DNA from: an uncultured virus (IMG/VR IMGVR_UViG_3300028888_000068)
Taxonomy: Duplodnaviria; Heunggongvirae; Uroviricota; Caudoviricetes
Direction: 5' to 3' (one strand)
IMG/VR virus record: IMGVR_UViG_3300028888_000068
Length of the DNA: 64,000 bases
Shown: positions 18,825 to 59,087 of the stretch, piece by piece
How positions within the stretch are numbered: position 1 is the stretch's first letter
Layout of the letters: the number at the start of each line of letters is the position of its first letter
Position numbers and translations under genes: made by a program
Notes under the pieces: model-generated
What the model was told of the DNA's origin: nothing
The model's database searches: none
The model's input: the letters and a program-made list of their open reading frames with translations, nothing else

Positions 18825-18900
18825 AAAAAAACAGGGGTATCTTCACGACAACCCTGCCAAAATCCAAAGATGGAACACTAAAACAACATCATATATAAGG
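18825..18900 (-). ncRNA. Mini transcription unit (promoter, ~33 nt, GTGA-loop hairpin, U-tract)
   Basis: Motif at 18890-18900; hairpin at 18832-18856. Confidence 0.5.
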
Positions 18901-18935
18901 CTTTAATCAATCTTTGGGCGGTATAAAAAGAGGGA

Positions 18936-19067
18936 TTACTTTCCCTCTTCTTTCTGCTGTTCCTCTCCTATCTCAGCAATTGACCGGATACCTTTCACGG
19001 TCACGGCAACTGTTGCAATCACCCCAAGGGTGTACATACAAAGGAGGGACCATAACTTTTTATTCAT
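18936..19067 (-). CDS. 43-aa membrane peptide (not in ORF track)
   Basis: MNKKLWSLLCMYTLGVIATVAVTVKGIRSIAEIGEEQQKEEGK; promoter motif at 19087-19097; terminator-like hairpin at the stop. Confidence 0.65.
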   Translation of the reverse strand: MNKKLWSLLCMYTLGVIATVAVTVKGIRSIAEIGEEQQKEEGK

Positions 19068-19466
19068 ACGCTTTTAAATTTTGGTTCATATGTAAGGCTT
19101 TAAAGATATACTAGACGGAAAAAATAAAGGGCATCATCACGACGTCCTTATATTTCGAACTTAAATCAGTCTATCACCTCTTCATATCTTTCTTCACGCA
19201 GAACTTTCTGCCTGACTGATTTTGTTCTTAGCTGTGGCTAATTCTAATACATATATAAGGCTTTGATAGATTATTAGACGGAATAAAAAAAAGAAAAACT
19301 TAGCAGAAATTTATGCTATAGTAAGTAGCTTGGATTGCATATGAATATTAGAAGTAATATACATAATAAGCCGCTAAGTCTTTCCTAGACTTCATATATT
19401 ATCTATTAAACACTATTCTTATTTAAATCTTCTTTCTTCATCATGTATAAGAATTTGAGGGCTTCA

Positions 19467-20381
19467 TTAGCTCCCATCTACTACACAATCATGAATCAGG
19501 CGGGTAAACTGTTCGAGAGATAATTTTCCTCCCGCTGCAGATTTATGTCCTCCGCCACCATAATATGATTTCATAAACTCTCCAGCATTAAAATCACAGT
19601 TATCATTCGTATATATAGAAAAGTTATACAGATTTGGTTCCTTTCTATTTACACATATATAGCAGTCATATTGGTCTTTAACACTGTCGAATTGAGAAGA
19701 GCCAAAGGTATTAGTTAGCATGCATATTCCCTTATACTTCCCAGCCACTAGAACATCAAATGCATATCCTTTGACACATCCTTTCCACGTATTCTTAAGA
19801 TATTTCAAGACTCCATTTCCCTCAATCATAATTTTATCTACATCTCTGAGTATGCTTTCAAAGTTGCTATAAAATTTTTGAGCGTTTAGCGAATATTCTG
19901 CTCTTAGTCCATACTGATAAGGAAGAATAACATCATCCCAGGAATAAATATCGTGTCTCCAAGTATCATAGTGAGACATATATAGAACTCCTAGAGGAAC
20001 ATCTTGGTCTGGATAAAAGAAGCTCCAACATAATTCACAAGCGGCCGTTCCATTAACTCGAACTCCCGGCATCTCAGAATAACCACATTCTTGAGACTCA
20101 GTGATCTGAGTTATATGATGGTCTATCCACACTGCTTTGCCGGAATTAGCGAGTTTTAACATATCGGCCGTAGGGAAAGATATGTCAACTAGGTAAATCT
20201 GATCTTGGGAGGATATAAGTTCGTCAATATCTGGAATAACGTCTCCATAGTTAAATCCAAACGTCTCAATATAAACTCCCTCATGATTTAAGGCTGACTT
20301 AGCTATGGACATTGAACATAATCCATCGTAGTCAACTCTATGATAAATAATTAAAATTTTTTTATCCATATCAATAATCAT
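19467..20381 (-). CDS. DHH-family phosphoesterase
   Basis: H-x-x-DYDG, LVD, IDHH and GGGH motifs. Confidence 0.9.
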   Translation of the reverse strand: MIIDMDKKILIIYHRVDYDGLCSMSIAKSALNHEGVYIETFGFNYGDVIPDIDELISSQDQIYLVDISFPTADMLKLANSGKAVWIDHHITQITESQECGYSEMPGVRVNGTAACELCWSFFYPDQDVPLGVLYMSHYDTWRHDIYSWDDVILPYQYGLRAEYSLNAQKFYSNFESILRDVDKIMIEGNGVLKYLKNTWKGCVKGYAFDVLVAGKYKGICMLTNTFGSSQFDSVKDQYDCYICVNRKEPNLYNFSIYTNDNCDFNAGEFMKSYYGGGGHKSAAGGKLSLEQFTRLIHDCVVDGS

Positions 20382-20790
20382 TTACTTCTATATCAAGAAT
20401 ACACTCTATTATCTCTTTAAATCTAAATTTCATCTCAAATCTTCCGACGGTTTTCATTATGTCGTATCGTTTCTCATTAACATTCCATCTGAGAGCATAA
20501 ATATTTCTATTTCCTCCCCATCCCCGGCGACTTTTAGTGTCTCTGAGAAAATTTATGAGATCCGACAGTCTTTCATTGAGCTCTGGTACTTCTGAATCTT
20601 TATAAACAAGGAAGGCGTCTAAGAAACTTTTTTTAACTTCAAGGTCTTCTGTTATTTCTTTCCCATTTTTATATCCAAACTCTTGCTTTAGATAGCACCG
20701 AACCGTTTGAACATTATACCCTTGTTTATTAAAAATAGATTTTATTTTATTTTCCGAAGCCCAAAAATGCCATGAAAACCACTTAGACAT
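20371..20790 (-). CDS. Hypothetical protein
   Basis: ORF in the operon. Confidence 0.7.
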   Translation of the reverse strand: MSKWFSWHFWASENKIKSIFNKQGYNVQTVRCYLKQEFGYKNGKEITEDLEVKKSFLDAFLVYKDSEVPELNERLSDLINFLRDTKSRRGWGGNRNIYALRWNVNEKRYDIMKTVGRFEMKFRFKEIIECILDIEVNDY

Positions 20791-20795
20791 ATTTC

Positions 20796-20972
20796 TTATA
20801 GTTTATATACACATTCAGTGTCGGATGTTGCAGGTGGAGTTTGAAAGTAAGTAGCATAATTAATCTCCTTAGACTTTCTATCTTCCTTATACATCTTATA
20901 CCTAAAACACCCTTCACACATCTTACATAAAAGTCTTCCAGTACATCTACAAATATCATCTACGCCAAACAT
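20796..20972 (-). CDS. Small Cys-rich protein (not in ORF track)
   Basis: 58 aa, MFGVDDICRCTGRLLCKMCEGCFRY...; fills the gap in the operon. Confidence 0.55.
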   Translation of the reverse strand: MFGVDDICRCTGRLLCKMCEGCFRYKMYKEDRKSKEINYATYFQTPPATSDTECVYKL

Positions 20973-21307
20973 AATCCTGTAAGTGCTTTAAATATATTTT
21001 GTAATTGATGAATATAGTCTACTTTAAACTTAGCAATAATACCAAGATTATCGTATATTATAAAATTAAATCTCTCCGTATTATCTGGTATTATATATTT
21101 AATAAGGAATTGCCCTACATCTTTCATTACATCTATTTTATCAGTGAATGTAGTAGAAACAAACCCCAAGTCGCTCTCTAAAGATTCTATAAGAATTGGT
21201 TTTCCGGTTATTTCTGGAGAGTCTATATTATCTTTAGAAATTACAACAGTCTCAGATCCGTAGTCGTGTTTAATTCTGGCTATATTTCCTATTTCGAACT
21301 CACTCAT
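20960..21307 (-). CDS. Hypothetical protein
   Basis: C-terminal YIHQLQNIFKALTG motif, recalled from Bacteroidota phage proteins. Confidence 0.7.
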   Translation of the reverse strand: MSEFEIGNIARIKHDYGSETVVISKDNIDSPEITGKPILIESLESDLGFVSTTFTDKIDVMKDVGQFLIKYIIPDNTERFNFIIYDNLGIIAKFKVDYIHQLQNIFKALTGLCLA

Positions 21308-21975
21308 AATTCTAAGATTGTTTTTAGGTTATTTAAGGAGGCTATAAATTTATTTTTATTCTCTTCCTTATCTACTTCTTTTGCTTCGCTTGGGTCATCA
21401 GCAGCTTCATCCATATACCTTGCTTTCACTATAAGTTCATACCAGTCTTTATTGGTCCTATACAGCTTGCCAAAAGTTTTTATAGAATAAGATTTATCAT
21501 AAAAATCTCTCTTTTCTTTTTCGGTAATCCAGGATAAGTGCATTAGTTTTGAAACCCACTCCCGAAGAAGTTCTAATTCTCCGTTTGGGAGTTTTGCTAA
21601 CATTGATGGAGTTATCTCTATTGAAGAATTATTACTAGGGAAAGACTCTTTTGCTTGGACAATTATATAGCCCGGAAGACTAACCAGATTATCCTCTGTA
21701 TAATAATCTCCTTTATTGGCCGTTATTCCAAGAGAAGACAGGTGTATCTCTACATTAGATGAAGTTTTAAATATTCTGGGATATTTTTTAGACATTTCTA
21801 GGGCGTCTTTATCTGGATAAGTCTCTAAAAGAATCTTTGTTGCCGCCTTAGAGATTAATTCTAAAAGAGATTTATATTCTTCAGAGTCTCTTAACTTCTT
21901 TGTTATCTCTTCTCTTAAATAGTGTGCATCGCTATTAGAAAAATATTTATTAGCTAGTTTTTTACTTAATTCCAT
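21304..21975 (-). CDS. Hypothetical protein
   Basis: 223-aa ORF. Confidence 0.7.
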   Translation of the reverse strand: MELSKKLANKYFSNSDAHYLREEITKKLRDSEEYKSLLELISKAATKILLETYPDKDALEMSKKYPRIFKTSSNVEIHLSSLGITANKGDYYTEDNLVSLPGYIIVQAKESFPSNNSSIEITPSMLAKLPNGELELLREWVSKLMHLSWITEKEKRDFYDKSYSIKTFGKLYRTNKDWYELIVKARYMDEAADDPSEAKEVDKEENKNKFIASLNNLKTILEL

Positions 21976-22520
21976 TACGATTTAATTAGATTATACAGTT
22001 CTATATAATTTTCTTTTATACTTGTAAGCGTGGCCTCTTGATTAGCCAAAACAGTTCTAAGCATTCGAAGTCTTTTGGCACAGTCATAGGCAAATAATAC
22101 TAAAGCTGTATATTTTTCAATAAAAGTTTTAGTAAATTCTGGAAACTTCTCTCTAAAACTCTTGCAGTCCTCTAAACCACATACAATATCTTCTGCAGTA
22201 AAGAAGAGCGGCAGTTTGTGAGAGGACATTGGGATTTTTCTGATTTTAGAATAGAAGAACTCACTTGCAATAGAAACTATTGAGCTGTCTAATCCTGGTA
22301 ATACGGATACGTCTCTATACCAAAAATCTATATCTCTTTGTAGAATTATACCCTTAGAGCCTTTTGCTAGAAGAGTAAATATGCTCTCAGGGTAATAAGA
22401 TTTAATGTAATTAATACAATAGGTAGCTAGTTCCTGCCGCAATTTATCAATCTCGGCATCAAAATTTTTAAGTTTTTTGTACTTCTCTAAAGTACTATCT
22501 ATTAGTGATGTTTGTATCAT
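21975..22520 (-). CDS. Hypothetical protein
   Basis: Starts 2 nt after the motif at 22523-22533. Confidence 0.7.
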   Translation of the reverse strand: MIQTSLIDSTLEKYKKLKNFDAEIDKLRQELATYCINYIKSYYPESIFTLLAKGSKGIILQRDIDFWYRDVSVLPGLDSSIVSIASEFFYSKIRKIPMSSHKLPLFFTAEDIVCGLEDCKSFREKFPEFTKTFIEKYTALVLFAYDCAKRLRMLRTVLANQEATLTSIKENYIELYNLIKS

Positions 22521-22592
22521 ATCATTTATAAGGTAATGATTTGCTCTTAAGTCGCCTTTTAACTCTTATAAATGAATTAAAACACGTATATT

Positions 22593-23237
22593 ATGGATTG
22601 GAAACAACAACTAAATAAGCGTATAGGCTACGGTTCTGCAATTCCTAATTCTGAATATTTTTTAGGAATTGTTCCCCTTCTTGAATTTCTAATAAATGAC
22701 CTTGAGAAATTTTTAGATCGAGAGGGGAGATACTACGGAATTATGGTAACTTATATTCACAAAACGAGAGAGATCTTGAAAAATATAAGACCAGATTTAG
22801 AAGAAGAGGATGATATTACTTGGAAACGAATAATATTTCTTTATAAACCTATAATTTTGAAAGAATATAAAAAATTTCTTAGAAGAAAAGTTACTAGGGC
22901 CGATGCAATTATATGTATAGTACGAAAGATTATAGAAATTATATTAACTTATGCAGAAGATGAAGTCTTTGAAAAATTTAATAATATTTACATAATCTTT
23001 GGAAAAATGTATACAAATATAAAAAACAAAGGAAAAGAATATTCCCTTCCCATCTTATGTTCTGTAGTTGATGGGTCTATTGAGGAAGGTCTTGTTGGTC
23101 TTCACAAATTAGATAAATTTTCTATCGTAGAAGAAGAAAATAAAAGAAAAGCTAAAGACGAGATTAGTGGAAGTGGGATTAGAATAAAAGAAAGCTCAGA
23201 TAATTTAATTTCAGAAGTATCATGGATAGACGAGTAG
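22593..23237 (+). CDS. Hypothetical protein
   Basis: Motif at 22565-22574 upstream. Confidence 0.7.
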   Translation: MDWKQQLNKRIGYGSAIPNSEYFLGIVPLLEFLINDLEKFLDREGRYYGIMVTYIHKTREILKNIRPDLEEEDDITWKRIIFLYKPIILKEYKKFLRRKVTRADAIICIVRKIIEIILTYAEDEVFEKFNNIYIIFGKMYTNIKNKGKEYSLPILCSVVDGSIEEGLVGLHKLDKFSIVEEENKRKAKDEISGSGIRIKESSDNLISEVSWIDE

Positions 23238-23242
23238 TTAAT

Positions 23243-23428
23243 ATGCTTATAGTGAACGATGACGATCTAAATTGTGATTGTAAATCGAAAACTATTGACG
23301 ATATTAGTATAATTAATGTCGGATTTAGTATTGGCGTTTTAGATAAATTTGAGATGGTAGTATATAAAGGTTCTAAAGGAACAAAAGTACTTAAATCGGT
23401 TTATACTAAAACGGGAACAATAAAATAG
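23243..23428 (+). CDS. Small hypothetical protein
   Basis: Followed by a bidirectional hairpin at ~23425-23455; start trimmed. Confidence 0.55.
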   Translation: MLIVNDDDLNCDCKSKTIDDISIINVGFSIGVLDKFEMVVYKGSKGTKVLKSVYTKTGTIK

Positions 23429-23461
23429 GATAGAATTAAATCTATCCTATTTTTATCTTAT

Positions 23462-24664: not shown

Positions 24665-24702
24665 CTCTTTTTTAAGGTTTAGATTAGTGTCTGTAGTTTG
24701 TT

Positions 24703-24954
24703 TCAGTGTCTGCTTCTTCCTTGCGAGTCTCTGAAATCTCTGTTTTCTTTGTGAGGAGCCTCGACGGGCTTGCAGAAGAAATCGACGACCGCATTGAAGA
24801 CAACAGCTCCTAACCCTATAATGGTTAGTCCAGCACCGGCGATGGAGCACCACCGCCTACCATTTTCTTTTAAATTTGGGAAATGTTTTGGGTTTTCCCT
24901 TGAATCCGCGAATTTGTTCACGATTCTTCCCATTACTTCGGCGTTGTTTGCCAT
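24703..24954 (-). CDS. Small membrane protein
   Basis: One hydrophobic helix. Confidence 0.65.
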   Translation of the reverse strand: MANNAEVMGRIVNKFADSRENPKHFPNLKENGRRWCSIAGAGLTIIGLGAVVFNAVVDFFCKPVEAPHKENRDFRDSQGRSRH

Positions 24955-24961
24955 AAATCTT

Positions 24962-45995: not shown

Positions 45996-46027
45996 AGAAC
46001 TCAGAAATTACTTCTGAGTTCTTTTTA
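45996..46027. terminator. Terminator hairpin
   Basis: GAACTCAGAA/TTCTGAGTTC stem. Confidence 0.7.
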
Positions 46028-46042
46028 TATATATAATATAAA

Positions 46043-46395
46043 GTTATTAATTCCCGCGACAGCCCAATATAAGAGGCCGTAGGAACAACTGCAAAACTAC
46101 TACTCTTCCTTCTGGTCGAGATGAATTTAGCATGGGATTTGATAGAGCTTTGTGCTTTTAGTCCTGATCTTTGAGTTATATTGAACTTTGATCTTTCTAA
46201 CTTTAAGCTTCTTAGCTCTAAGCTTTTATTAGCCATTAATTTACGCGCTTCAAATACGTAAAATTTATCGTGTCTAGATTAAAAGTCTAGTCGATTATAC
46301 CTTTTAGCGTTATCATCGCTAAAAAACATCCTAATTTACTTCCGAATGTGAGAGAAGGCGTTATTTATGGCCTCTTTCGCCGTAGTATTAATAAC
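46043..46395 (-). ncRNA. Candidate structured RNA with heptamer repeats
   Basis: Terminal pairings 46043-51/46387-95 and 46071-78/46369-76; internal hairpins; ~9 AAAGNTY-like units. Confidence 0.6.
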
Positions 46396-46401
46396 CTTAC
46401 C

Positions 46402-47037
46402 TTAGTCCTCGATTTCTATGAAAGTAGTCGAATTACTTTCAGAAAGAACATAGTCGACGTTTGTTTTAAAGTCTTCTATATCTTTCTCGAGGGACTCTAT
46501 TTTTTCGGCAATATTGATTGGATCTACGAAAGCTGCTTCGTAGAGCTTTTCAATTGTATCTAGAGCATCTTTTTCAAGGTCCTTTGCCTTTGTGTCTCCA
46601 CTTTTTCCAGTCTGGTCCTTGACGATTGTCTCAACACGAGCTCTGTTTTCAGCTTCAACAGCTTCTTTCTCTTTTTGAGCTCTAGTAAACTGAAGCTTTA
46701 AAACTCTCAGTTCCTCCTCCTGCAGGTAAATAAGATTTTTTCTTACAATTGCCTGCTGGACTGTCATTTCTTTGCCTCCAATCTTAACTATTGTCGTTAA
46801 GTTGGATTTATCTATCTCTTCTTTTAATCTGGTTATTCGATTTCTTATGGCTTCAACGCTCTGAAATTGAGCAATGGCCTTTCCTTCGAATACTTCTTTT
46901 GTGAATTGAGAGTTTGGCTGACGGAGAGCCTGACCTTTTCTAACTGCAATAAAGCTAGAACGGTTTAGCTCAGAGCCATACCGATTTTTCAACAGTTTTA
47001 ATTCTGCTAATGCTCTGGTAATTGTTATCTTTGCCAT
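46402..47037 (-). CDS. Coiled-coil protein (DIP1984/DUF6847-like, from recall)
   Basis: ITITRALAELKLL...IDKSNLTT...VDP...VDYVLSESNSTTFIEI. Confidence 0.7.
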   Translation of the reverse strand: MAKITITRALAELKLLKNRYGSELNRSSFIAVRKGQALRQPNSQFTKEVFEGKAIAQFQSVEAIRNRITRLKEEIDKSNLTTIVKIGGKEMTVQQAIVRKNLIYLQEEELRVLKLQFTRAQKEKEAVEAENRARVETIVKDQTGKSGDTKAKDLEKDALDTIEKLYEAAFVDPINIAEKIESLEKDIEDFKTNVDYVLSESNSTTFIEIED

Positions 47038-47076
47038 AAACTTATAAATTTTAAAGTGTTGAAATAAAATAAACGC

Positions 47077-47177
47077 CGCCTAATTATTAAGCTTCCGATT
47101 CAAACGGAATATTGAATATACTAGTAGTAGTATATCCCGGTTTGTCCCTCTTAAGCCTAGTCCATAATAATTAAGCG
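47077..47177 (-). other. Structured leader with a T-arm-like hairpin
   Basis: 13-bp near-perfect closing stem; TTCCG-TTTGAAT-CGGAA; ATATACTA/TAGTATAT. Confidence 0.4.
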
Positions 47178-47383
47178 AAAATCTAATTTATTATGGTTTT
47201 TGTTTGTCTAGAAAATAGTTAATTTAAAATGCACCTTATGAATCAGAACTTCGGCCCTATAATAACGACCTACTTTCTCCCGAAGATATCTCTTCTCGGT
47301 TCTAGTATTCTGGGATACATTACGTATACCAGAAGGGTTCATAATGTATATAATATATGAATTTTAATGTCTTGAAAAGAATG

Positions 47384-47482
47384 GGAGCGAATGGGCTGGC
47401 CGGGAGTTGGTTCCCTACATACTTTGCCGTTGGCGAGGAGAAAGGTATGTTTAAGGTTGGGACCAGCCCAAGTTATCGCTCC
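47384..47482 (-). ncRNA. Candidate rod-shaped GC-rich RNA
   Basis: Nested stems GGAGCGA/TCGCTCC, TGGGCTGG/CCAGCCCA and ACATAC/GTATGT; motif at 47511-47520 upstream. Confidence 0.5.
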
Positions 47483-47733
47483 TTAGGTTTTGTGTTGAAA
47501 GTTTTTAATTCATTTATAAGAGTATGAGGGCCGTGAAGTCTGCTCCTGTTTTTAGGGGGTACCAAGCGGATATAGCAGGCTTGGCCAAGACGATGATGAT
47601 TCCCACAAAGGCCGCAACGATGATGATGAGCCTGCTAGAAACCAATACTGTTCCGCTAAAAATATCGCGGCCCTATTCATACTCAGTTCTCATTTATAAG
47701 AATTTGAGGGTTTCTTAGTTACCCTCTTTTTTG

Positions 47734-47804
47734 TTGAGATGTAGCGATTCGAACGCTAACTAAGGGAACCAAAATCCCTGGTGCTACCATTACACCACAT
47801 CTCA
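47734..47804 (-). tRNA. tRNA-Gln(TTG)
   Basis: Full cloverleaf: TGAGATG/CATCTCA, loop TTTTGGT, GTTCGAATC; motif at 47809-47818. Confidence 0.92.
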
Positions 47805-47887
47805 ATTCCATTTATAAGAATTTAAGGGCCTCGTAGTTTCCCTTTTATTTCTCTTTAAAGCCTTATAGATGAAAACCAATACATGAT

Positions 47888-48097
47888 ATGAAAGAATTAA
47901 TTTTAATGCGCCTTGCGGCTACTAAAATTAAGCTTATAACGGCGCGGGAAAAGTTGGTTGCTGATTTCAATGAGATTGAAAAGCAACTAGAAGTTCTTGA
48001 AAAGAGAATTGCTAATGCTGAGAGCGCTGAGGAGATCTCCAACGCGCTTGGAACGGCTATTCAATTCTTAGATTCTTATGAAAAGAAGGGAAACTAG
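47888..48097 (+). CDS. Small coiled-coil protein
   Basis: Own motif at 47861-47871 and a terminator at the stop. Confidence 0.65.
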   Translation: MKELILMRLAATKIKLITAREKLVADFNEIEKQLEVLEKRIANAESAEEISNALGTAIQFLDSYEKKGN

Positions 48098-48214
48098 CCC
48101 TTCTTTTTTATTCCCTTCTATATCCCTTCAAAACCTTATATATGTAGAAGATACCTAAAGACTAAGACTGACGCTTTGGGTATTTTATGTCTTTAGTCAG
48201 TCAAGAATTAAGAT

Positions 48215-48400
48215 ATGGAATTTTTTGCTATATTGGCATGGCTTGGGAAAGTCATTGCCATGTTCGCCGCATTGGCGATCCTGGTCCTGGTCATTATGGC
48301 CTGGGCTGGGAATACAATGAAAAAGTCCCGGGAAGCCCGGGAAAAGTCTAACTCCGTCCTGCAGAAGTGTGGGCGCGGTGACATCCGGATTCAGAAATGA
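48215..48400 (+). CDS. Small membrane protein
   Basis: Hydrophobic N-terminal half; motif at 48134-48144. Confidence 0.7.
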   Translation: MEFFAILAWLGKVIAMFAALAILVLVIMAWAGNTMKKSREAREKSNSVLQKCGRGDIRIQK

Positions 48401-48503
48401 TCCGGATTTTTATTTCCCCCAAAGCCTTATATATGTAGAGGAGCTAAATTTTATTATATAGCCAGGCCTCTACATTTTGTAAACTACTAAAACCAAACCT
48501 ACT

Positions 48504-48638
48504 ATGAGCAACATAGAAACTGTTGTATTGGTGATTACTGGGTCTCTTGGACTTATGTACATCACCTACATATCTGGGCTCATTGTAATCTCTTTATTCA
48601 AGGGATTTTTGACGAGCCTGAAGAAATGGGGAAAGTGA
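48504..48638 (+). CDS. 44-aa membrane peptide (not in ORF track)
   Basis: MSNIETVVLVITGSLGLMYITYISGLIVISLFKGFLTSLKKWGK; motif at 48425-48435. Confidence 0.65.
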   Translation: MSNIETVVLVITGSLGLMYITYISGLIVISLFKGFLTSLKKWGK

Positions 48639-48670
48639 AAACTTTCTTCATTTTTTTATCCTCTCAAATT

Positions 48671-48845
48671 CTTATATATGACTTTTTAACGTCTTGTTTG
48701 ACATCGGTGCTAGAGAATATCTGGGGAGGTATCTCTAGCACTATTTTCTTTGTCTCCTTCTAATTCCTTATAAATGAATTTAGCTTATTCATATTTGGTA
48801 TTAGGAAGGGTAGTCCTCGGTTGCAAAACTGGGGGCTACTTTATT
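48671..48845 (+). ncRNA. Two tandem mini transcription units
   Basis: Motifs at 48671-80 and 48766-76; hairpins at 48707-48741 and 48810-48839. Confidence 0.5.
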
Positions 48846-48887
48846 GATAATGATAAAAAAGAAGGAAAATAGCTTCCTTCTTTATTT

Positions 48888-49055
48888 TCATAGCGGGACA
48901 ATTATATATTCTAATTCATTGAGGTCTCCGATATCAAAAGCTTCGGATTCTGCTTTTCTTTTTGCTCGTTCGGCCTCTCTTTTAGAATTATAAGTTCCTA
49001 CCAACATGCCGTTTTCTAAAAGTCCCCACGGCTCATACTTTTCTTCTTTTGCCAT
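48888..49055 (-). CDS. Small hypothetical protein
   Basis: Start trimmed to MAKEEK; similar to 13540..13734. Confidence 0.6.
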   Translation of the reverse strand: MAKEEKYEPWGLLENGMLVGTYNSKREAERAKRKAESEAFDIGDLNELEYIIVPL

Positions 49056-49665
49056 CTTCTTTATCTTTTCTAAAACTCGTCTTCTTGTCGAACCCATGAC
49101 TCTCGGCCTTTTCTTCATCGGTTCTTGAATCTGTTATTACCGGCTCTTTCATTTTCAGGAGATAGTTATAAATTCCGTTCCATATTTCTTGAGCCGAGAG
49201 AAATCCGATGAGAGGGAGGCCGACCAGGATAGGGTTCTTCACATAATCCCAAGAATCCCATCGTGAACCAGTCTCTCGATAAGCTAAGACGAGAGGAGCC
49301 TGTGGAGATATTAGTTCTTTATCAACTCCATAATAAGGATCGGATACCCACCAAGGCATCCAACTCTTTTTCTTCTGATTCTTTAATTCTCCATCCATAT
49401 CGTATTCCTCAACGGTGAATTTTATATTATCACCGTCATAATCTCTATTGACAAGGAACCTCTTTTTATAATCTTCGCCTGCCTGAATATATAAGTAGTA
49501 ATTTCGGCTAGGCTCATTTTTAAGAGAGTTGAATGGCCTATGGTATCCGTCAAGCTCTTTTCTTGCTACAACGGAATTTCTTCTATCATATACTACATAC
49601 TCATCTATGCCATTTATTCCGGCAAGATAATCGTAAAAATCTTTTTTGTTATCTATTATTTTCAT
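49033..49665 (-). CDS. Conserved phage hypothetical protein
   Basis: KDFYDY...HGFDKKTSFR; starts 2 nt after the motif at 49668-49678. Confidence 0.75.
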   Translation of the reverse strand: MKIIDNKKDFYDYLAGINGIDEYVVYDRRNSVVARKELDGYHRPFNSLKNEPSRNYYLYIQAGEDYKKRFLVNRDYDGDNIKFTVEEYDMDGELKNQKKKSWMPWWVSDPYYGVDKELISPQAPLVLAYRETGSRWDSWDYVKNPILVGLPLIGFLSAQEIWNGIYNYLLKMKEPVITDSRTDEEKAESHGFDKKTSFRKDKEDGKRRKV

Positions 49666-49686
49666 ATCATCAATAAGGCTTTAATC

Positions 49687-49980
49687 CCTTATATATAAGT
49701 TTCATATAATGATAGGTTTTAAGTCCGGCTATTGTGATAATACCCGGGCTTTTTTATTTATACCGCCCAGGAAGCCTTAATTCCTTATATATGTAGGTTT
49801 AGGTTTTAGTACACAACGGGCCGACAAACTATTAAAAAGATCTGATTTATGTCGGCCCTTAATTATTAACTAAAACCTAGGAAAACTATTTTTTTCGTCC
49901 TATTAAATCCTTATATATGAAATTTTCATGTAGTTACATTTGCCGGAGTCCAGTTGTTGCGAAACACCTGGGCTTTTATT
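49687..49980 (+). ncRNA. Three tandem mini transcription units
   Basis: Motifs at 49687, 49783 and 49909; hairpins at 49721-51, 49800-79 and 49947-74, each followed by a U-rich tract. Confidence 0.5.
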
Positions 49981-50001
49981 TGTCCCTTTAAATTCTTATA
50001 T

Positions 50002-50244
50002 ATGAAAATGACAAATATTGAAAAAAGAACTTTAAAAAGAAATCGAAGAGTACGAAAAAAGTATTTTAAGATTTTTTATAAAGACGTAAAAAGAGCACTA
50101 GCAACAGATTATCCAAAAACTGAAAATGGAGACTTATTTAAAAGTCTAGAGATACTTGCAGATAACCCGGTGCTACTGTTCAAAGCGGACATGGAAGAGA
50201 AGCATCATGTTGCAGAGGTAGTTTTGGTAGATTCATTAAGTTGA
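50002..50244 (+). CDS. Small basic hypothetical protein
   Basis: Start trimmed to the motif at 49995-50004. Confidence 0.6.
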   Translation: MKMTNIEKRTLKRNRRVRKKYFKIFYKDVKRALATDYPKTENGDLFKSLEILADNPVLLFKADMEEKHHVAEVVLVDSLS

Positions 50245-50367
50245 AAAATCCAGAGACCTGTGTAAAATATAAAGTCAATCAAGCAGTTGCAGAATGGATT
50301 GACAGCTGTGATGACATGGCAAAACAAAATACAGTAAGTTTAACACTTTATTTAAATAGCATTTAAT

Positions 50368-50901
50368 ATGGATCCAACTGAAGCTACTGTAAATCAGTCT
50401 AAAACAGAAAACAAGTCTGACTGGTCTTTCCTGAAAGTACTTGTGGACAGAAATGAGCCGAAAGTTCATTTTGGCTCTCCTAAATTTACCCAATATTCTT
50501 ACGTCGACAAAACAGACGGAAGAAAAAGAATCGTGGTAAAATGTGAAATGGAGTCTCAGCTAGTCCTTCCTGAGGGTTTTTTCAGGGATGATGAAATGGG
50601 AACAGAAGAGTTCATTCATTATCCTTCGGTAAAAGTCATCAAGACTACTGGTAAGGCAATCTGCGACGAAAGAGACGAAGAAAATTTCAGCCTAACTCTT
50701 GGCATGAGAGTTTCTCGTGTTCGTGCAGAAAAGAGGGCGTTCGAAAGACATGCCAAAGCCCTTGAAGCTAGAATGACTAAACTTCTTGATTTCTATCACA
50801 ACTCTCTAGACAGTTTCATGGCAAAAGCTGACAAAGTCCTAGCTGATGAGATTATCTGGGAAGAGAAGAAGAAAGAAGAAACGCCGTCAGAAGAGAAGTA
50901 A
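50368..50901 (+). CDS. Phage hypothetical protein
   Basis: GKAIC...D...F...LG...RA pattern common in phage proteins. Confidence 0.7.
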   Translation: MDPTEATVNQSKTENKSDWSFLKVLVDRNEPKVHFGSPKFTQYSYVDKTDGRKRIVVKCEMESQLVLPEGFFRDDEMGTEEFIHYPSVKVIKTTGKAICDERDEENFSLTLGMRVSRVRAEKRAFERHAKALEARMTKLLDFYHNSLDSFMAKADKVLADEIIWEEKKKEETPSEEK

Positions 50902-50945
50902 AACTTGGGGCTAGGTAAAAATTCCTAGCCTCTAATTTATAAAAT

Positions 50946-51698
50946 ATGAGAAAATTACTTCTTATTATAGACCCTCAATATGATTTTGTAAATCCTTACG
51001 GGTCTTTATTCGTTAATGGGGCTCCAGAAGCTATAAAGAATATTGCATCTTATATAAGAAAGCATGGAGAAGATCTTTCCGGAATAGCAGTAACTATGGA
51101 TACTCACCATAAGTATCATATTGCTAATCCTGGATATTGGAGCCCTAGACCAAAGCCATTTACCAGAATAACTGCGGAAGACGTCGCTTCTGGAAAATTT
51201 AGGCCAATTAAGGAAGAGTATAGGGAGACTACTAAAAGTTATTTAGCCTCTATTGACGGAATAACAATCTGGCCAGAACATTGTCTGGAAGGTTCTCCTG
51301 GTTGGGCAATGCCTCGTGAGCTTTCTGAGGCTATTCATGAGTGGGAGCTTCAAACAGAGCCGGTAGAGTTTGCAGAATACTATCAAAAAGGAACAAATCC
51401 TACTTTTGAAGCATTCTCATTATTCACAGAGGCTCCAGGAATGGAAGGTTACCGGCCCTATGCAGACATCAATGTATTCTCAGACTATGATAAAATTGTA
51501 GTTTGCGGTTTTGCAAAAGATGTCTGTGTAGCAAATACAGTTATGGATATGCTTAGAGATGGAGAAGAATATTACAGAGATAAGCTAATGTTCTTTGAAG
51601 ATGGAATGGCTAGCATTGATCCAGAAAGTCCTATGAACCAGGTATTTCAGGATGCTATTCTGCAGTTTGGTGCTGAATTAGAAGTTGATATAAATTAA
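50946..51698 (+). CDS. pncA: Nicotinamidase (isochorismatase family)
   Basis: IDPQYDF, D-T-H, WPEHC, KG and GFAKDVCV. Confidence 0.85.
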   Translation: MRKLLLIIDPQYDFVNPYGSLFVNGAPEAIKNIASYIRKHGEDLSGIAVTMDTHHKYHIANPGYWSPRPKPFTRITAEDVASGKFRPIKEEYRETTKSYLASIDGITIWPEHCLEGSPGWAMPRELSEAIHEWELQTEPVEFAEYYQKGTNPTFEAFSLFTEAPGMEGYRPYADINVFSDYDKIVVCGFAKDVCVANTVMDMLRDGEEYYRDKLMFFEDGMASIDPESPMNQVFQDAILQFGAELEVDIN

Positions 51699-51759
51699 AA
51701 ACAATAAAGGCAGAAAAATAAACTGCCTTTCTCTTTCCTCGCTTTTCCTTATATATGTT

Positions 51760-52197
51760 ATGTATATACTAGTAAATAAGAAACCAGTTGATGTATTTAA
51801 AATAGATGCCGTATCTTCAATTATTCCGTTAGATATGAAAAGGTATAGAGCAGCGGTTAATTATCTTGAAGATCCTACTTTTGAAGGATTTCGTAAGAGG
51901 AAGATACAAGCAGATAAAAAGAAATCACAAAATATAGTAGAAAACATTATTAAATATATGATTAATGATGTTAGACACGAAGACTATAAAACGATGACAG
52001 GATATATTCCTACTAAATTTTCCGATGATTATGAGAAAAAGAATCTTGGATACTACTTTTGTATATCGCCGGGAAAGGATGAAGACTATATTTGTTCTAG
52101 AATATACAAAACAGAAGCAGAAGCAGAGAAAAACTTAAAAGATTTTCTTGAGCTTATAAATACCGTTAGAAGCATAGTATCTGAAATTACTATTTAG
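51760..52197 (+). CDS. Hypothetical protein
   Basis: Starts 2 nt after the motif at 51747-51757. Confidence 0.7.
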   Translation: MYILVNKKPVDVFKIDAVSSIIPLDMKRYRAAVNYLEDPTFEGFRKRKIQADKKKSQNIVENIIKYMINDVRHEDYKTMTGYIPTKFSDDYEKKNLGYYFCISPGKDEDYICSRIYKTEAEAEKNLKDFLELINTVRSIVSEITI

Positions 52198-52260
52198 AGA
52201 GGACCTTAGAATCCTCTCTTTAAATCCTTATATATGAAAAATTATTAATTAAACACAAAA

Positions 52261-53448
52261 ATGGAAGGAATTATTAAATCAAAATTAGAAAATGACCTTT
52301 ACAAATTTTCAATGAGTTATTTCTATATGATGAAATATCCCAAAGCACAAGGGATTTTTGCATTCCATGATAGAAATAATTCCACATATACGAAGGAATT
52401 TGTGGAAAGGCTTAAGAAGGAGATACGGCTGTTTGCTGAACTAAGAATGACCAACGAAGAGTTCGAGTGGGCAGTTAAGAATATCCCGTATATCCCTAGA
52501 TTTTTCTGGGAATGGTATCGTGGCTTCCAATTTGACCCTTCGGCTGTATCTATAAGCCTGGATTCCGAAAACCATCTTAAAATTTCGGCCTCTGGATATC
52601 TTTATCAGATTACTTTTTGGGAGGTTCCTATTCTCGCTATGGTGTCTGAGATTAAGAATGAACTTGAAGGAAATATCGAAAAGCTTGATGTTAACAAGTT
52701 TACTGATGCTCTAAAGAGAAAAATCAAACTTTCTAATGACAATGGAATGAAATTTTCTCTCTTTGGAATGCGGCGGAGATTCAGTGGCCCACTGGAGGCT
52801 CAGGTAACGGATATTTGCAGTAGAGAGGCAAAATATTGTGTTGGAACATCCAACGTCTGGTTTGCTTATGTCTATCATATGAGACCAACTGGAACGCTCG
52901 CCCATGAACTTATTATGGCAGCAGGAAGTTGGTATGGTTACAGGATGGCTAACTGGAGAGTGATGGAAGATTGGTCTAGTGTCTTTGGAATTGACCTTGG
53001 AACTATGCTGATCGATACCTTTACCTGTGATGTATTCTTCTGGAATTTCACAAGGGAACATGCTCATCTATTCTCTTCGTTGAGAATCGATTCTGGTGAT
53101 GAGTATGAAATTGCTGATAAAGCTATTAAATCATATCAGAAACTTGGAATTGATCCAACTCAGAAAACTCTAATATTCTCAAACTCTCTTAATTTCCCTA
53201 AGGCACTTGCTATTCAGCAGTATTGTGGAGATAGAATCAAGACTAGCTTTGGAATTGGAGGAAATCTTACAGCGGATGTTCCCGGAGTTAAGCCTAGCAA
53301 TATCGTTATGAAGCTATCCCGCTGTAGATTGACAGAAGATATGGATTGGCGAGATTGCATTAAAATCTCAGACGATCTAGGCAAACACATGGGAAATGAG
53401 ATTGAGCTAGAGAGAGCCTTAATTGAGCTAGAAATAAAGAATCCTTAA
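52261..53448 (+). CDS. pncB: Nicotinate phosphoribosyltransferase
   Basis: NDLYKFSM, FGMRRRFS, GTSN, GTLAHE, RIDSGD, FGIG and KISDDLGK. Confidence 0.92.
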   Translation: MEGIIKSKLENDLYKFSMSYFYMMKYPKAQGIFAFHDRNNSTYTKEFVERLKKEIRLFAELRMTNEEFEWAVKNIPYIPRFFWEWYRGFQFDPSAVSISLDSENHLKISASGYLYQITFWEVPILAMVSEIKNELEGNIEKLDVNKFTDALKRKIKLSNDNGMKFSLFGMRRRFSGPLEAQVTDICSREAKYCVGTSNVWFAYVYHMRPTGTLAHELIMAAGSWYGYRMANWRVMEDWSSVFGIDLGTMLIDTFTCDVFFWNFTREHAHLFSSLRIDSGDEYEIADKAIKSYQKLGIDPTQKTLIFSNSLNFPKALAIQQYCGDRIKTSFGIGGNLTADVPGVKPSNIVMKLSRCRLTEDMDWRDCIKISDDLGKHMGNEIELERALIELEIKNP

Positions 53449-53462
53449 TACAAATTCATCGT

Positions 53463-53494
53463 GAGCTAAGAACTAAAATTCTTAGCTCTTATTT
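53463..53494 (+). terminator. Terminator hairpin
   Basis: GAGCTAAGAA/TTCTTAGCTC stem followed by a T-rich tract. Confidence 0.7.
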
Positions 53495-53524
53495 CCTTAT
53501 ACATGAATTAAACATATAAAAACA

Positions 53525-54220: not shown

Positions 54221-54229
54221 TAAGATACT

Positions 54230-55261: not shown

Positions 55262-55283
55262 ACTCACATAAACAAAAACAATT

Positions 55284-56870
55284 ATGGCAAAAGTAAAACC
55301 CTGGGTGAAGATTGTAGGAATTGCACTCGTCGCCGCTGGCGTTGGACTTGGTCTTAACGCCGCTGGAGTCTTCAAGGGCTCTGAAAACAAAACCACTACT
55401 GAAAAAAGCAGTGGAGAGAAGAAACCCTCTGGAATTTTTGGAGGGAAAACTAAGAAAATTGACTACATAACTGTAGGAACCAACACCTATGCTGGCTTCT
55501 TGCCATTTATGTATCTCAACAACGGCCTGGAACCGAACGAAGACTGTATTCTCTATAAGGAGTATGGCCTTAAGATGAAAGTTGTCATTCAAGACGACTT
55601 CCAGGCTGGACGTATGGCTTTCAAAAATGGAAACATTGACGTTATCTACTGTACTGTCGATGCTATTCCCGTCGAAATGGGCGAAGGTTCTGAAATGACG
55701 GACGCTAAGGTCTTCAACCTCAGTAACTGGAGCCGCGGAGCAGATGCTATCGTTGTCGGAAAAAATATTAAGAAGGTAGTAGACCTTATCGGCAAAGTAG
55801 TAGCCTGCTCTGAAGGAACGGCCAGCCATACATTACTTCTCAATACCCTTGAGACCTCTGGCATTGGTTACGATAGAGTTAATCTCAAATCCTCTATCGA
55901 ACCTGACAAAGTTAATATTAAGGTAGTAGGCTCTGGGCTCGATGCTGCTGCTGCATTTAAGGCAGGTGCTTGTGATGCTGCTGTAGTGTTTTCACCGGAC
56001 GACCAGGACCTTGTAAATTCTGGACTCGGTCATGTCCTAGTCTCTACCAAGCAAGCCTCTAGTATTATCTGTGATGGACTTATTGCAAAACAGGATTTCA
56101 TTGACGCAAATCATGAAAATCTTGAAAAACTTATCGGCGCTCTCTTGTCTGCTAATGTCAAGATGAATACTGATATGTCCGCCGTCCGTCAGGCAGCACG
56201 ATATTTTGCCAAAGCTTATGGAACAGACGAAGATTTTGCCATCGAGGGTTCTAAAAACATTTACTACGTAACCCTTGAGGATGAAGCCAATTTCTTCGGA
56301 CTTAGGTCAGACTATACTGGAATGAAGGGAGACGAGCTTTATTCCAAGATGGCTAGAACTTATAGCGGTCTTGGTCTAGTTCGGAATCCCATTTCCTGGA
56401 GAAAAGCTTCTGATGATTCAGTTATTGAGGCTCTTCTCGGAAAGCCAGACTTAACTTCCGGAAATCAGGCTGCAGAAACTGGACCTGAATTTGAAGAAAG
56501 AGCCGGCCTAGAAACCGCTCCCGTATTCTCAAACAAGTCAGTTACCATTGAATTTCCGACAGGTTCTGCTACGCTCGATAACAATGGAAAAACAATTATC
56601 GATCGAGAGTTTAAGACTCTGGTTAAGCAGTTCTCTGGAGCTCGGTTTAGAGTTGAGGGAAATACTGACAACACTGGCTCGGCTGCAACTAATGAGGCAC
56701 TGTCTAAGAGGCGTGCTCAGGCTGTTGTAGATTACCTAGTCAGAGAATGCGGTGCTGATAGAAATCAGTTTACTGTTGTAGGCAATGGTTCCAAGCATGC
56801 AATTGATGCTGGTTCCAAAGGCTCAGATAGTAGATACAGAACTACTGATCTTTTACTGATCAGTGAATAA
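55284..56870 (+). CDS. ABC substrate-binding protein (SsuA/NMT1-like) fused to an OmpA-like peptidoglycan-binding domain
   Basis: WSRGADAIV; C-terminal FPTGSA...EGNTD...NEALSKRRAQAV. Confidence 0.85.
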   Translation: MAKVKPWVKIVGIALVAAGVGLGLNAAGVFKGSENKTTTEKSSGEKKPSGIFGGKTKKIDYITVGTNTYAGFLPFMYLNNGLEPNEDCILYKEYGLKMKVVIQDDFQAGRMAFKNGNIDVIYCTVDAIPVEMGEGSEMTDAKVFNLSNWSRGADAIVVGKNIKKVVDLIGKVVACSEGTASHTLLLNTLETSGIGYDRVNLKSSIEPDKVNIKVVGSGLDAAAAFKAGACDAAVVFSPDDQDLVNSGLGHVLVSTKQASSIICDGLIAKQDFIDANHENLEKLIGALLSANVKMNTDMSAVRQAARYFAKAYGTDEDFAIEGSKNIYYVTLEDEANFFGLRSDYTGMKGDELYSKMARTYSGLGLVRNPISWRKASDDSVIEALLGKPDLTSGNQAAETGPEFEERAGLETAPVFSNKSVTIEFPTGSATLDNNGKTIIDREFKTLVKQFSGARFRVEGNTDNTGSAATNEALSKRRAQAVVDYLVRECGADRNQFTVVGNGSKHAIDAGSKGSDSRYRTTDLLLISE

Positions 56871-56935
56871 ACCGTCTTGTTGTTTTGTTGGGGTGGGCAG
56901 TTGAAATATATTGCTCACCCTTTATCTTAAACAAT

Positions 56936-57202
56936 ATGACTAAGAAAGCTGATTGGAAACTAAAAAGAGAAGCTCAAGCAGACATTCTTCTTCCGTGGGC
57001 ACAAAACAAGATTAAGAAACTTGGATATAACGCCAAAATAGAAGGATATTCCGTTGTCTTTAGGGTTGGAGTCTGTAAAGTAAGATTCTATCCCTTTACT
57101 GGTGGAATTCAGTGGCAAGGAACTCCAGGGATAAAAGAAAGAGGAATGAGCAATCTTATAAAACTCATCAATGAACATGAAAAAACTAAAGGGACTGTTT
57201 AA
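56936..57202 (+). CDS. Hypothetical protein inside the ABC operon
   Basis: Start trimmed to MTKK; FYPFTG motif. Confidence 0.6.
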   Translation: MTKKADWKLKREAQADILLPWAQNKIKKLGYNAKIEGYSVVFRVGVCKVRFYPFTGGIQWQGTPGIKERGMSNLIKLINEHEKTKGTV

Positions 57203-58025
57203 GTTTGGAGGAAGCAGTGATTTTGGAAAGCTAACGCCGTTAGTCTCGGTGATAGGAATTCTTTTCCTTATTGGACTTTGGTGGTTAGAAGCTAAGTTTG
57301 AAGTTATACCAACTAAGATTCTTCCTGGACCATTCGATGTTTTAGGCTCTTATCCTGGTCTTATCACGGAGAATAGCCTCTTCGGAAATCTATGGTTCAC
57401 GGTTAAACTGAATCTCTTGGCATACTTCTGGGCAATATTAATATCTCTTGTAGTCGGATTTGCACTATCACTGATTCCTTTCCTTAACCTAGCGTTGGGA
57501 AAATATCTTAGTGCCCTTCGCTATACCCCACTGCCGAGTATCTCTGGTGTCTTCATAGCCGTTGCAGGACTCACATTTGGAATGAAAGTGAGTTTCCTTG
57601 CGGCTGGCTTGATAATCTTTATACTTCCGGCAGTAGCAGCGAAGGTAAACGAGCTACAGAATCCAACCAATGACTCCAATATCTACTTAGAGACTATGGA
57701 AACTCTGGGTGGAACTAGTTGGCAGAAGTTTAGGTATGTCTATTTCCCATATGTAACCTCCACAGTCAGTCAGGAAATTATAACCCTAACTGGTGTATCA
57801 TATTCCTACTGTGTTATCGCCGAACTTCTTTATAAATCCGGCGAAGGAATTAACGGCGTGGGAAGTTTAATCAATACCCTAATCAGACAATCTCATATGC
57901 CTGAAGCCTGGGCATGTTTGTTCCTGATTATTGCCGTCGGTGTACTTCAAGATTTTCTATTTAAGAAGCTTGATATTGCCCTATTCCCCTTTAAGTATAA
58001 CAAGAAAAGCATCTGGAGGAAATAA
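57171..58025 (+). CDS. ABC transporter permease (SsuC/TauC-like)
   Basis: About 6 TM helices; EAA-like ETMETLGGTSWQKFRYVYFP. Confidence 0.88.
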   Translation: MNMKKLKGLFKFGGSSDFGKLTPLVSVIGILFLIGLWWLEAKFEVIPTKILPGPFDVLGSYPGLITENSLFGNLWFTVKLNLLAYFWAILISLVVGFALSLIPFLNLALGKYLSALRYTPLPSISGVFIAVAGLTFGMKVSFLAAGLIIFILPAVAAKVNELQNPTNDSNIYLETMETLGGTSWQKFRYVYFPYVTSTVSQEIITLTGVSYSYCVIAELLYKSGEGINGVGSLINTLIRQSHMPEAWACLFLIIAVGVLQDFLFKKLDIALFPFKYNKKSIWRK

Positions 58026-58027
58026 AG

Positions 58028-58999
58028 ATGGGAATATTTAAGAAAGAGCTTGAAGAAAAGAGAAGACAGGAGTTAGAGGCTGAACTTGAGAAAGAAGAAG
58101 TCCTCGATAAAACAAGTGTCAAAGTAGAAACTGTGCCTCAGGAAACATTTGACAAACCGGAGGAAGTAGAAAAAGAAGTTCTTGAAAATGTTAATGTGTT
58201 CGACCTTAAGAATATTAATGTTTCTTTCAAGGTAGGACAAGAAGTCAAACATCTTTTCCAGGACTTTAACCTAGAAATCCCTGATATTCCTGGAAAATCT
58301 CAGGTGATTGGGTTTGCTGGTCCGTCGGGTTGTGGAAAGTCTCAGCTCCTTAGAATTATCTCAGGGCTGTCTAAACCACAATCTGGAGAGGTCCTAGTCT
58401 ATGGCCAACCCTATACAGACAAGACCCATTTTCCGCTGATTTTCCAAAGATACAGCAACTATGATTGGATGACCGTCTATGATAATCTTGCCCTTCCCCT
58501 TAAAATGAGAGGTATGAAGGACGGCGATATAAAGGCGGCCGTAGAAGAGATGATTGATATCTTAGGACTTCGTGGACATGAGCAGAAGTGGGGATATCCG
58601 GGAGGTGGACTTTCTGGTGGTCAATGTCAGAGAATTTCCATCGGCCGTAGTATTCTCGCCGCTGCAGGAAATAAAGACTCTAGGGGAAATCAAATCCTTC
58701 TCCTAGACGAAGCCACTAGTGCTCTTGACATCGTATCTAAGCACGAAGTTCATGACACCCTAATGAATATCTTGTATGGGACCGAACTAGACCCGACTAT
58801 GATAATCGTTAGTCATGATCCGTCTGAACTAGCTTTCCTGTGTGATAAAGTCTTCGTTCTTGCTCCCTGGCCCTGTCGTATTCATAAAGTTGTGGACATC
58901 GACTATGGGGTGGGAAAGAGAACGAGAGAAATCAAAGAAAGTCAGAAATGTCAGGACTATGCAAAGGAAATTGAGCAGTCTATCCGAGAAATTGAATAG
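58028..58999 (+). CDS. ABC transporter ATP-binding protein (SsuB/TauB-like)
   Basis: GPSGCGKS, LSGGQCQR, LLLDEATSALD and VSHD. Confidence 0.93.
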   Translation: MGIFKKELEEKRRQELEAELEKEEVLDKTSVKVETVPQETFDKPEEVEKEVLENVNVFDLKNINVSFKVGQEVKHLFQDFNLEIPDIPGKSQVIGFAGPSGCGKSQLLRIISGLSKPQSGEVLVYGQPYTDKTHFPLIFQRYSNYDWMTVYDNLALPLKMRGMKDGDIKAAVEEMIDILGLRGHEQKWGYPGGGLSGGQCQRISIGRSILAAAGNKDSRGNQILLLDEATSALDIVSKHEVHDTLMNILYGTELDPTMIIVSHDPSELAFLCDKVFVLAPWPCRIHKVVDIDYGVGKRTREIKESQKCQDYAKEIEQSIREIE

Positions 59000-59008
59000 A
59001 CCCCAAAT

Positions 59009-59087
59009 CCTTATAAGTGACTGTTTTTAAATCATCGCTGTTAGTTGAGTTAGGCCAGAGTGTAATAGCTTTGGCCTTTCTCTTTTT
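59009..59087 (+). ncRNA. Mini transcription unit
   Basis: Motif variant at 59009-19; hairpin at 59052-77; U-tract. Confidence 0.45.

Follow-up and report, generated by a model that had tools for sequence, protein, structure and literature searches.

The DNA analysed here is a stretch of 64 kb of phage DNA (IMG/VR record IMGVR_UViG_3300028888_000068, 64,000 nt, 36.7% G+C), called the window in this text. Its genes form two long arms; minus-strand genes occupy about 8 to 47 kb, and plus-strand genes follow from about 50 kb onwards. Genes for replication and NAD salvage, a tail-fibre-like gene and five tRNAs are among them. The tRNAs were all that Rfam returned for the window at gathering score; over 46900-50100, it gave sub-threshold noise only. 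Between the genes we observed short units without an open reading frame (ORF), each of which has a promoter motif, a 5' segment, a hairpin and a run of T residues. Six such units had been listed in an earlier reading of the same DNA (the original prediction), and all six are present at the expected coordinates with promoter, U-rich segment, hairpin and T-rich tail. They start with CCTTATATATG or a variant that is one or two bases off, followed by 23-32 nt (44-58% T) and a stable hairpin. We found three further ORF-less units of like build at 19260 (minus strand), 49783 (plus strand) and 59409 (plus strand). The nine units are:

u18900, 18822-18900, minus strand: promoter CCTTATATATG, a 31-nt segment, a hairpin at 18830-18858 (7-bp lower stem, T.C mismatch, 4-bp upper stem, GTGAA loop) and a T-run.
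u19260 (unlisted before), 19112-19260, minus strand: promoter, an ORF-less segment of about 100 nt that lacks CAT, a hairpin of the mismatch class described below at 19127-19149 (A.C mismatch, GTGAT loop) and a T-run.
u48670, 48670-48752, plus strand: promoter TCTTATATATG, a 25-nt segment, a long hairpin with a GGGG loop and a T-tract.
u48766, 48766-48846, plus strand: promoter CCTTATAAATG, a 5' hairpin (AUGAAU:AUUCAU), then a 16-bp hairpin with a GCAA loop.
u49687, 49687-49758, plus strand: promoter variant CCTTATATATA, a 23-nt segment, a hairpin at 49721-49751 (C.C mismatch, GTGAT loop) and a T-run.
u49783 (unlisted before), 49783-49895, plus strand: promoter at 49783-49793, 22 nt at 49794-49815, a hairpin at 49818-49858, a 3' stretch at 49869-49881 that is complementary to part of the unit's own 5' 22 nt, and a T-run at 49889-49895.
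u49909, 49909-49982, plus strand: promoter, a 25-nt segment whose CAU pairs with the 5' AUG, and a hairpin at 49945-49976 (T.C mismatch, GCGA loop).
u59009, 59009-59087, plus strand: promoter variant CCTTATAAGTG, a 32-nt segment with a GUGA:UCAU pairing, a 10-bp hairpin and a T-rich tail, which merges into the following promoter at 59088.
u59409 (unlisted before), 59409-59532, plus strand: promoter CCTTATATGTG, an ORF-less segment of about 75 nt with an internal hairpin, a terminator hairpin of the mismatch class at 59495-59524 (C.C mismatch, GAGA loop) and a T-run.

The promoter motif is a genuine and frequent signal. With up to two mismatches allowed, CCTTATATATG has 67 matches in the window, compared with 33.0 ± 5.6 expected, and none of 100 shuffles reached 67. 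From 28 strict instances, the consensus yCTyAAAt-CCTTATATATGA was obtained; a C/T-rich box around -21 to -16 is less pronounced. The matrix built from these strict sites gives 42 matches at 12 bits or more versus 0-2 (mean 0.6) in 20 shuffles, although this test is partly circular, the 28 training sites being counted within the 42. Roughly 9 of the 42 matches belong to the ORF-less units. Every match is oriented as the local genes, and at least 12 promoters lie within the 3 kb at 47000-50000. Directly upstream of many of the strict sites there is a hairpin with a T-run; the upstream box is weakly conserved. The exact 11-mer was also found in three distant IMG/VR contigs (138-305 kb, 26-39% G+C), in 7, 16 and 25 copies versus 0 for the reversed control. 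Sigma-70-like sites showed no enrichment in the window (58 vs 57.3 ± 7.7 expected).

The motif ends 2, 4 and 7 nt upstream of three of the five tRNAs, and many ORF ATGs lie 0-5 nt past its end or even inside it. Because of this closeness, transcription probably starts at or beside the ATG of the motif. By the same positional argument, many phage messages are probably nearly leaderless. One tRNA directly behind a promoter motif (15736-15808, minus strand, Rfam 44 bits) received the anticodon 'ta' from ARAGORN and no assignment, and may be of an unusual type or a suppressor.

The hairpins of the units differ from one another, unlike the repeats of one CRISPR array. Still, five of the nine units terminate with a hairpin of a special class. 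Here, a lower stem of 4-9 bp is separated from a 4-bp upper stem by a 1x1 N.C mismatch, with C invariably as the 3' base; the loop is GNRA or GNRA+1, and a T tail follows. The window contains five hairpins of this class, all in ORF-less units, versus 0.0 in 20 shuffles. The class also occurs in the close relatives L064 and L065 and in the genomes G001 and G002, where the lower stems are quite different. Several units of the window, G001 and G002 share the apex pattern GTC-(N)-GTGA-(N)-GAT; the apices of u49687, u49909 and u59409 are of other kinds. Two units, u49687 and u49909, are paralogous, with 62% identity outside the promoter versus 0.48 ± 0.04 (maximum 0.58) for 300 random segments. A variant of the same architecture is seen in a 254-kb IMG/VR phage (G003), in which four near-identical leaders precede paralogous small genes (L057 at 7000, 8218 and 8748; L058 at 2234). 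These leaders consist of a promoter, about 30 nt, a hairpin and a T-run a few bases upstream of the gene, that is, the chassis is placed there as a 5' leader with a terminator.

One of the additional units, u49783, connects the phage with the chromosomes of Bacteroidales. Its 22 nt at 49794-49815 are identical in 22 of 22 positions to a chromosomal element of these bacteria. The exact 20-mer is present in at least 120 Bacteroidales genome contigs (species-level genomes), its invariance among these loci being in part a product of the exact-match search. Among the matches listed for a sample of one family, 54 of 121 genomes match the u49783 stretch, over up to 33/33 nt (G376); an even sample of the whole class gave 8 matches in 301 at two mismatches or fewer. 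The host element was single-copy in all four genomes checked. The loci from which we know it (L124-L203, L244-L249) come from many gut and rumen families of the Bacteroidales.

In the hosts, the sequence TGCAAC-N15/16-GCATC lies 7 or 9 nt upstream of the 22 nt in 76 of 79 loci, and a hairpin with a T-run follows in 66 of 78, with 50 distinct hairpin sequences. The predicted RNA has a median length of 64 nt, and the 22 nt are predicted to be unpaired at its 5' end. By these sequence features, the host element has the anatomy of a small RNA (sRNA) gene with a conserved 5' end. It is a candidate for a new sRNA family, perhaps one that is read by an alternative sigma factor. Rfam 15 yielded no family in seven loci at gathering score and in four loci at E <= 1. 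A full-text literature search with a 17-mer of the element (as DNA, RNA and reverse complement) gave no match, and the motif was not found in the available part of the text of Ryan et al. 2020 (PMC7366714).

The same 22 nt are also carried by an unrelated GC-rich phage, represented by three IMG/VR contigs that are identical over the 660 nt compared. In this phage they are followed by a different hairpin and then directly by a tRNA-Asn. Compared with the host element, u49783 has the phage promoter in place of TGCAAC-N15/16-GCATC. Its hairpin starts 2 nt after the 22 nt and is longer than that of the host, the T-run follows 30 nt after the hairpin, and the 3' stretch complementary to the 22 nt has been added. 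In some hosts, GCATC-TTATATATG stands just upstream of the 22 nt and overlaps the phage promoter motif. The 33-nt identity to G376 (window 49784-49816 versus L244) arises because this host sequence overlaps 10 nt of the phage promoter. Such an overlap could have eased the capture of the element by recombination, and it could mean that the phage and the host gene share a polymerase specificity. As to how u49783 acts, three readings can be considered: it may be a copy of the host seed that acts on the targets of the host RNA, a decoy for whatever binds the 5' end of the host RNA, or a sponge for the host RNA that works through 49869-49881.

We next turn to the relatives of the phage, which are syntenic metagenome contigs of 82-212 kb with about 70-91% DNA identity. 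The comparison with the close relatives L064 and L065 covers u48670, u48766, u49687, u49783 and u49909. It revealed both turnover of entire units and conservation of their framework. The whole of u48670 is missing from both relatives as a clean whole-unit indel, and u48766 is kept in L065 and not alignable in L064. The slot of u49687 is occupied in L064 by a promoter variant, a 68-aa hydrophobic ORF and a different terminator. In L065, the u49687 hairpin is kept with a compensatory exchange of G-C to A-U, and in the u49909 hairpin of L064 both strands of the stem are altered and the fold is kept. In u49783, the 5' stretch is retained in 23 of 24 columns (96%) in L065 and in 21 of 24 (88%) in L064. 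As a reference, four-fold sites of eight neighbouring genes (pooled) are identical at 0.555 in L065 and 0.507 in L064, and those of the adjacent ORF at 0.75 and 0.86, respectively. From these alignments, the promoters and hairpins are constrained, and the 5' segments of the listed units not visibly so. In G001, we found two tandem units with identical flanks around unrelated inserts.

The explanation that we consider best, and to which we would give an even chance, is that the units are cassette-borne sRNA genes of the phage and that one of them, u49783, copies a host RNA. Each unit would be the standard gene cassette of the phage, consisting of a promoter and an intrinsic terminator, in which an RNA takes the place of the protein gene. 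Most likely, the units yield non-coding RNAs of 55-140 nt, in which the 5' segment is unpaired or folds only lightly and the 3' end forms the terminator hairpin. This is the usual build of trans-acting bacterial sRNAs. Recombination between the repeated promoter and terminator sequences would allow units to be gained, lost, duplicated and swapped. Carrying 22 nt copied from the conserved 5' end of a host sRNA-like gene, u49783 would probably serve as a stand-in for the host RNA or as its competitor. The original prediction had described a modular set of antisense sRNAs with interchangeable guides; the part of it in which exchangeable 5' segments are mounted on a single promoter-terminator chassis agrees with the anatomy of the units, and the general idea of a phage sRNA chassis gains indirect support from u49783 and its copy of the host element.

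Several observations speak against this explanation, in addition to the search-dependent invariance of the 20-mer mentioned above. The 5' segment of u49687 is 57% identical to L065, that of u49909 is 79% identical to L065 and 58% to L064, with indels, and that of u48766 has 6 differences in 30 columns (counted by eye). By this comparison, the 5' segments of u49687 and u49909 change at about the neutral rate, and a sequence-specific function is therefore not supported for any listed unit. In u49783, the seed is predicted to pair over 13 bp with the unit's own 3' stretch in the window and in L065, which would mask it; this pairing comprises 8 bp in L064 and is absent in the GC-rich phage. Long anti-seed sites gave 17 non-self matches in five host genomes, versus 67 for the control pattern. 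In G002, hairpins of the mismatch class also stand behind protein genes; they therefore are a terminator type of this phage group rather than a hallmark of sRNAs. Finally, no transcript ends were seen in the assembled contigs of four rumen metatranscriptome runs (X2, X7, X16 and X18), which cannot reveal small RNAs and thus indicate neither that these are present nor that they are absent. The contigs do not cover 49721-49921, and the RNA cover at 48127-49647 consists of one contig of run X2.

Part of this evidence favours the main rival explanation, according to which the units are empty or decayed cassettes, i.e., promoter-spacer-terminator shells left behind after the cargo was lost or swapped, whose short RNAs have no function. 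In this view, nearly all genes of the phage are framed by a phage promoter and a terminator, and it is recombination between these repeats that removes or exchanges the cargo. The whole-unit indel of u48670, the 68-aa ORF in the u49687 slot of L064 and the near-neutral divergence of the 5' segments are all as expected for such shells, and the region between the two gene arms in which the units cluster is variable. PeSL cassettes in T4-type phages show the same behaviour (PMC2839356, PMC4122927). However, ORF-less promoters and hairpins are kept, with compensatory changes, despite four-fold sites that are only about 50% identical. Moreover, a unit of identical build, u49783, holds a precisely conserved 22 nt of host origin, and ORF-less units make up as much as 9 or so of the 42 promoter matches. 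We regard the empty cassettes as somewhat unlikely, and as the alternative to be taken most seriously.

Going beyond the cassette-borne sRNA genes, a bolder version is conceivable. The phage lineage may use the chassis as a rack into which small RNAs are plugged. One or more of these would have been captured from the host chromosome, as the 5' seed of an undescribed and possibly alternative-sigma-dependent sRNA that many gut and rumen Bacteroidales have in common, and with it the phage would switch on or jam a host regulon in the course of infection. An unrelated phage would have captured the same seed independently, and the other, fast-changing units would be guides specific for particular host strains. 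We put this forward tentatively, as a possibility that we would doubt more readily than believe.

The original prediction had gone in a different direction and proposed that the variable segments are guides which pair with an mRNA of the host or the phage over its start codon and thereby block initiation. It was based in part on the presence of CAT in every segment. CAT does occur in all six listed segments, for which the chance is about 0.001 for one named trinucleotide, and of the 64 trinucleotides only CAT and TTT are common to all six. The sRNA-like build of the units is also in agreement with guides of this kind, and phage RNAs that cover a ribosome-binding region are familiar from P22 sar, P1 c4 and DicF. 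The CAT signal is softened by its post hoc choice and by the paralogy of two of the six carriers (u49687 and u49909), and the siblings u49783 (24 nt) and u19260 (99 nt) lack CAT. In three of the six listed units (u48766, u49909 and u59009), the CAU is predicted to be bound to the unit's own 5' AUG or GUG. As a cause of every CAT, such masking of the 5' AUG had to be rejected, as it fits only three of the nine folded units.

A search for targets did not reveal any preference for start codons either. In line with the earlier remark that no segment fully matches a gene in the window, the longest complements measure 10-12 nt. For none of seven segments were the window complements longer than in shuffles, 0.28-0.99 of which do as well or better. 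Duplex energies against 84 start regions were no better than those at internal control sites or with shuffled guides; the fraction of 30 shuffles that were at least as good was lowest for u49687 (0.07) and 0.43-1.00 for the others. BLAST of three unit regions against 121 Bacteroidales genomes gave scattered matches (E <= 0.01) in 3, 8 and 3 genomes; this search registers seeds of about 15 nt or more, and shorter seeds in the true host are still conceivable. The matches of u49687 in four genomes are chance identities of 16-17 nt in unrelated contexts. A fourth query had nine scattered matches outside the u49783 seed, and the four that we inspected lie in unrelated contexts. The guides are not conserved in the relatives either. 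The aiming at start codons is thus not supported as a part of the modular sRNA set, and we think that guides of this type are improbable.

Another alternative is that the units are leaderless micro-ORF attenuators. The RNA would start at the AUG, and translation through the hairpin would decide on read-through into the next gene. Reading frames from the ATG or GTG of the motif do cross the hairpin in u48766, u49909 and u59009 (read by eye). Frame lengths are erratic, though, with about 3, 4, 1 and 0 codons in u48670, u18900, u49783 and u49687, and neither L065 nor L064 has retained them. In addition, every downstream gene has a promoter of its own right past the T-tract. It would be surprising if attenuation turned out to be the role of the units.

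The cluster of units at 48.6-50.0 kb could also supply priming or activating transcripts for replication. The cumulative GC skew has its minimum at about 47-50 kb, where the genes switch from the minus to the plus strand. However, gene orientation alone can give such a change in skew, and units of the same build at 18.9, 19.2, 59.0 and 59.4 kb lie away from the switch. This makes origin-associated transcripts the least probable of the explanations considered here. Apart from the units, the region 47000-50000, with its skew minimum, diverging arms and crowded promoters, is a possible replication origin region.

Close to the cluster, we noticed two further stretches that may give rise to RNA. 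One is an ORF-poor stretch of 454 nt (47060-47513, minus strand) behind a promoter at 47521 (minus strand). It is nearly identical in L064 and L065, against 75-85% identity for the neighbouring genes. Its fold is far better than that of shuffles (z = -4.4, 0/100 as good), and its depth in contigs of the RNA runs is high. It has no Rfam match, a search for host counterparts of 47040-47720 gave a marginal hit in 1 of 121 genomes, and an 18-mer of it matched one IMG/VR contig that shows no wider similarity to the window. We consider it a candidate for a large structured phage RNA. The other one is a unit of about 163 nt (47531-47693, minus strand) between the promoters at 47701 and 47521 (both minus strand), beside tRNA-Gln. 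Within the stretch compared with RNA run X2, it has the top contig depth (2319 in the bin 47510-47710). L064, L065 and L067 have conserved it, with insertions, and shuffles fold as well as it does (z = 0.76).

Variable DNA is also found next to these stretches. About 1.06 kb (45998-47061) are absent from L064 and L065. This segment includes a 211-aa ORF (46402-47037, minus strand) with a match to a tail-fibre PHROG (E 2e-51). The loose ends of RNA contigs at 46987 and 47027 would fit the existence of variants that lack the segment.

Regarding the affiliation of the phage, one protein of the window is 64-66% identical to that of Prevotella Lak megaphages. We did not assign the phage to the Lak group because the helicase of the window is not related to Lak helicases and because Lak loci lack promoters with the AAA box (3-5 loose motif matches per 41-kb Lak locus, 0 of them with the box upstream). 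The source is called here only a large Bacteroidales-type phage. Among its close relatives, the 209-aa protein is 95% identical in L064 and 87% in L065, to which L066 is identical. IMG/VR protein relatives of the 209-aa ORF and of a 395-aa ORF were not found. GenBank phages had no near match to 47000-53000, and only weak partial matches (E 0.2-0.6) to u49783 and to 48660-48860. Public runs containing the stretch are mostly gut metagenomes of sheep and cattle. At 50946-53448, a protein with an isochorismatase domain is encoded beside a nicotinate phosphoribosyltransferase, an arrangement that resembles a phage NAD-salvage module.

To our knowledge, riboregulation in Bacteroidales is poorly known, and we know of nothing on riboregulation by their large phages. 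If the units are sRNA genes as proposed, they would add a defined phage promoter with near-leaderless messages and a cassette anatomy by which phage sRNA genes can be recognised. They would also provide a testable pair, made up of an sRNA candidate that is widespread in Bacteroidales and apparently undescribed, and of the copies that two unrelated phages have of it. The host element deserves attention by itself, given its occurrence in at least 120 species-level genomes and its position outside Rfam 15 in the loci searched. Should the units be empty cassettes instead, they would still be an example of PeSL-like modular shuffling in phages beyond the T4 group.

The host element can be compared with RybB and MicA of Enterobacteria, which are envelope-stress sRNAs transcribed with an alternative sigma factor and have their seed at the very 5' end. 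It resembles them in its conserved and presumably single-stranded 5' end, its terminator hairpin and its non-housekeeping two-box promoter. The likeness concerns the design only.

For the cassettes, the closest parallel is found in the PeSL elements of T4-type phages, in which a terminator hairpin and a strong promoter are repeated between the small genes of variable regions (PMC2839356, PMC4122927). The phage studied here likewise has a composite of a repeated stem-loop terminator and a promoter between its genes. Indels and replacements between relatives are bounded by the repeats in both cases, here at u48670, u48766 (not alignable in L064) and the u49687 slot. In contrast to PeSLs, its promoter is not sigma-70-like (yCTTATAWATG with an AAA box) and follows a lineage motif that ends in TATG at the start codon, and several of its cassettes are without any ORF.

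Trans-acting sRNAs are known from phages and prophages, for example DicF and AgvB, the latter a mimic of GcvB targets, as listed in a review (PMC12197685). Like these sRNAs, the units would give short phage-encoded RNAs that have their own promoter and terminator and may act on host RNA networks. The examples seen in the review come from prophages or temperate phages of Enterobacteria, and the terms 'jumbo', 'lytic phage' and 'Bacteroid' are absent from it. For a phage copy of the 5' end of a host sRNA itself, we found no precedent in the phage-sRNA literature as far as this text covers it (PMC12197685). The difference is best seen by comparison with AgvB, which mimics the targets of a host sRNA (PMC12197685), whereas u49783 would copy the 5' end of the host sRNA itself.

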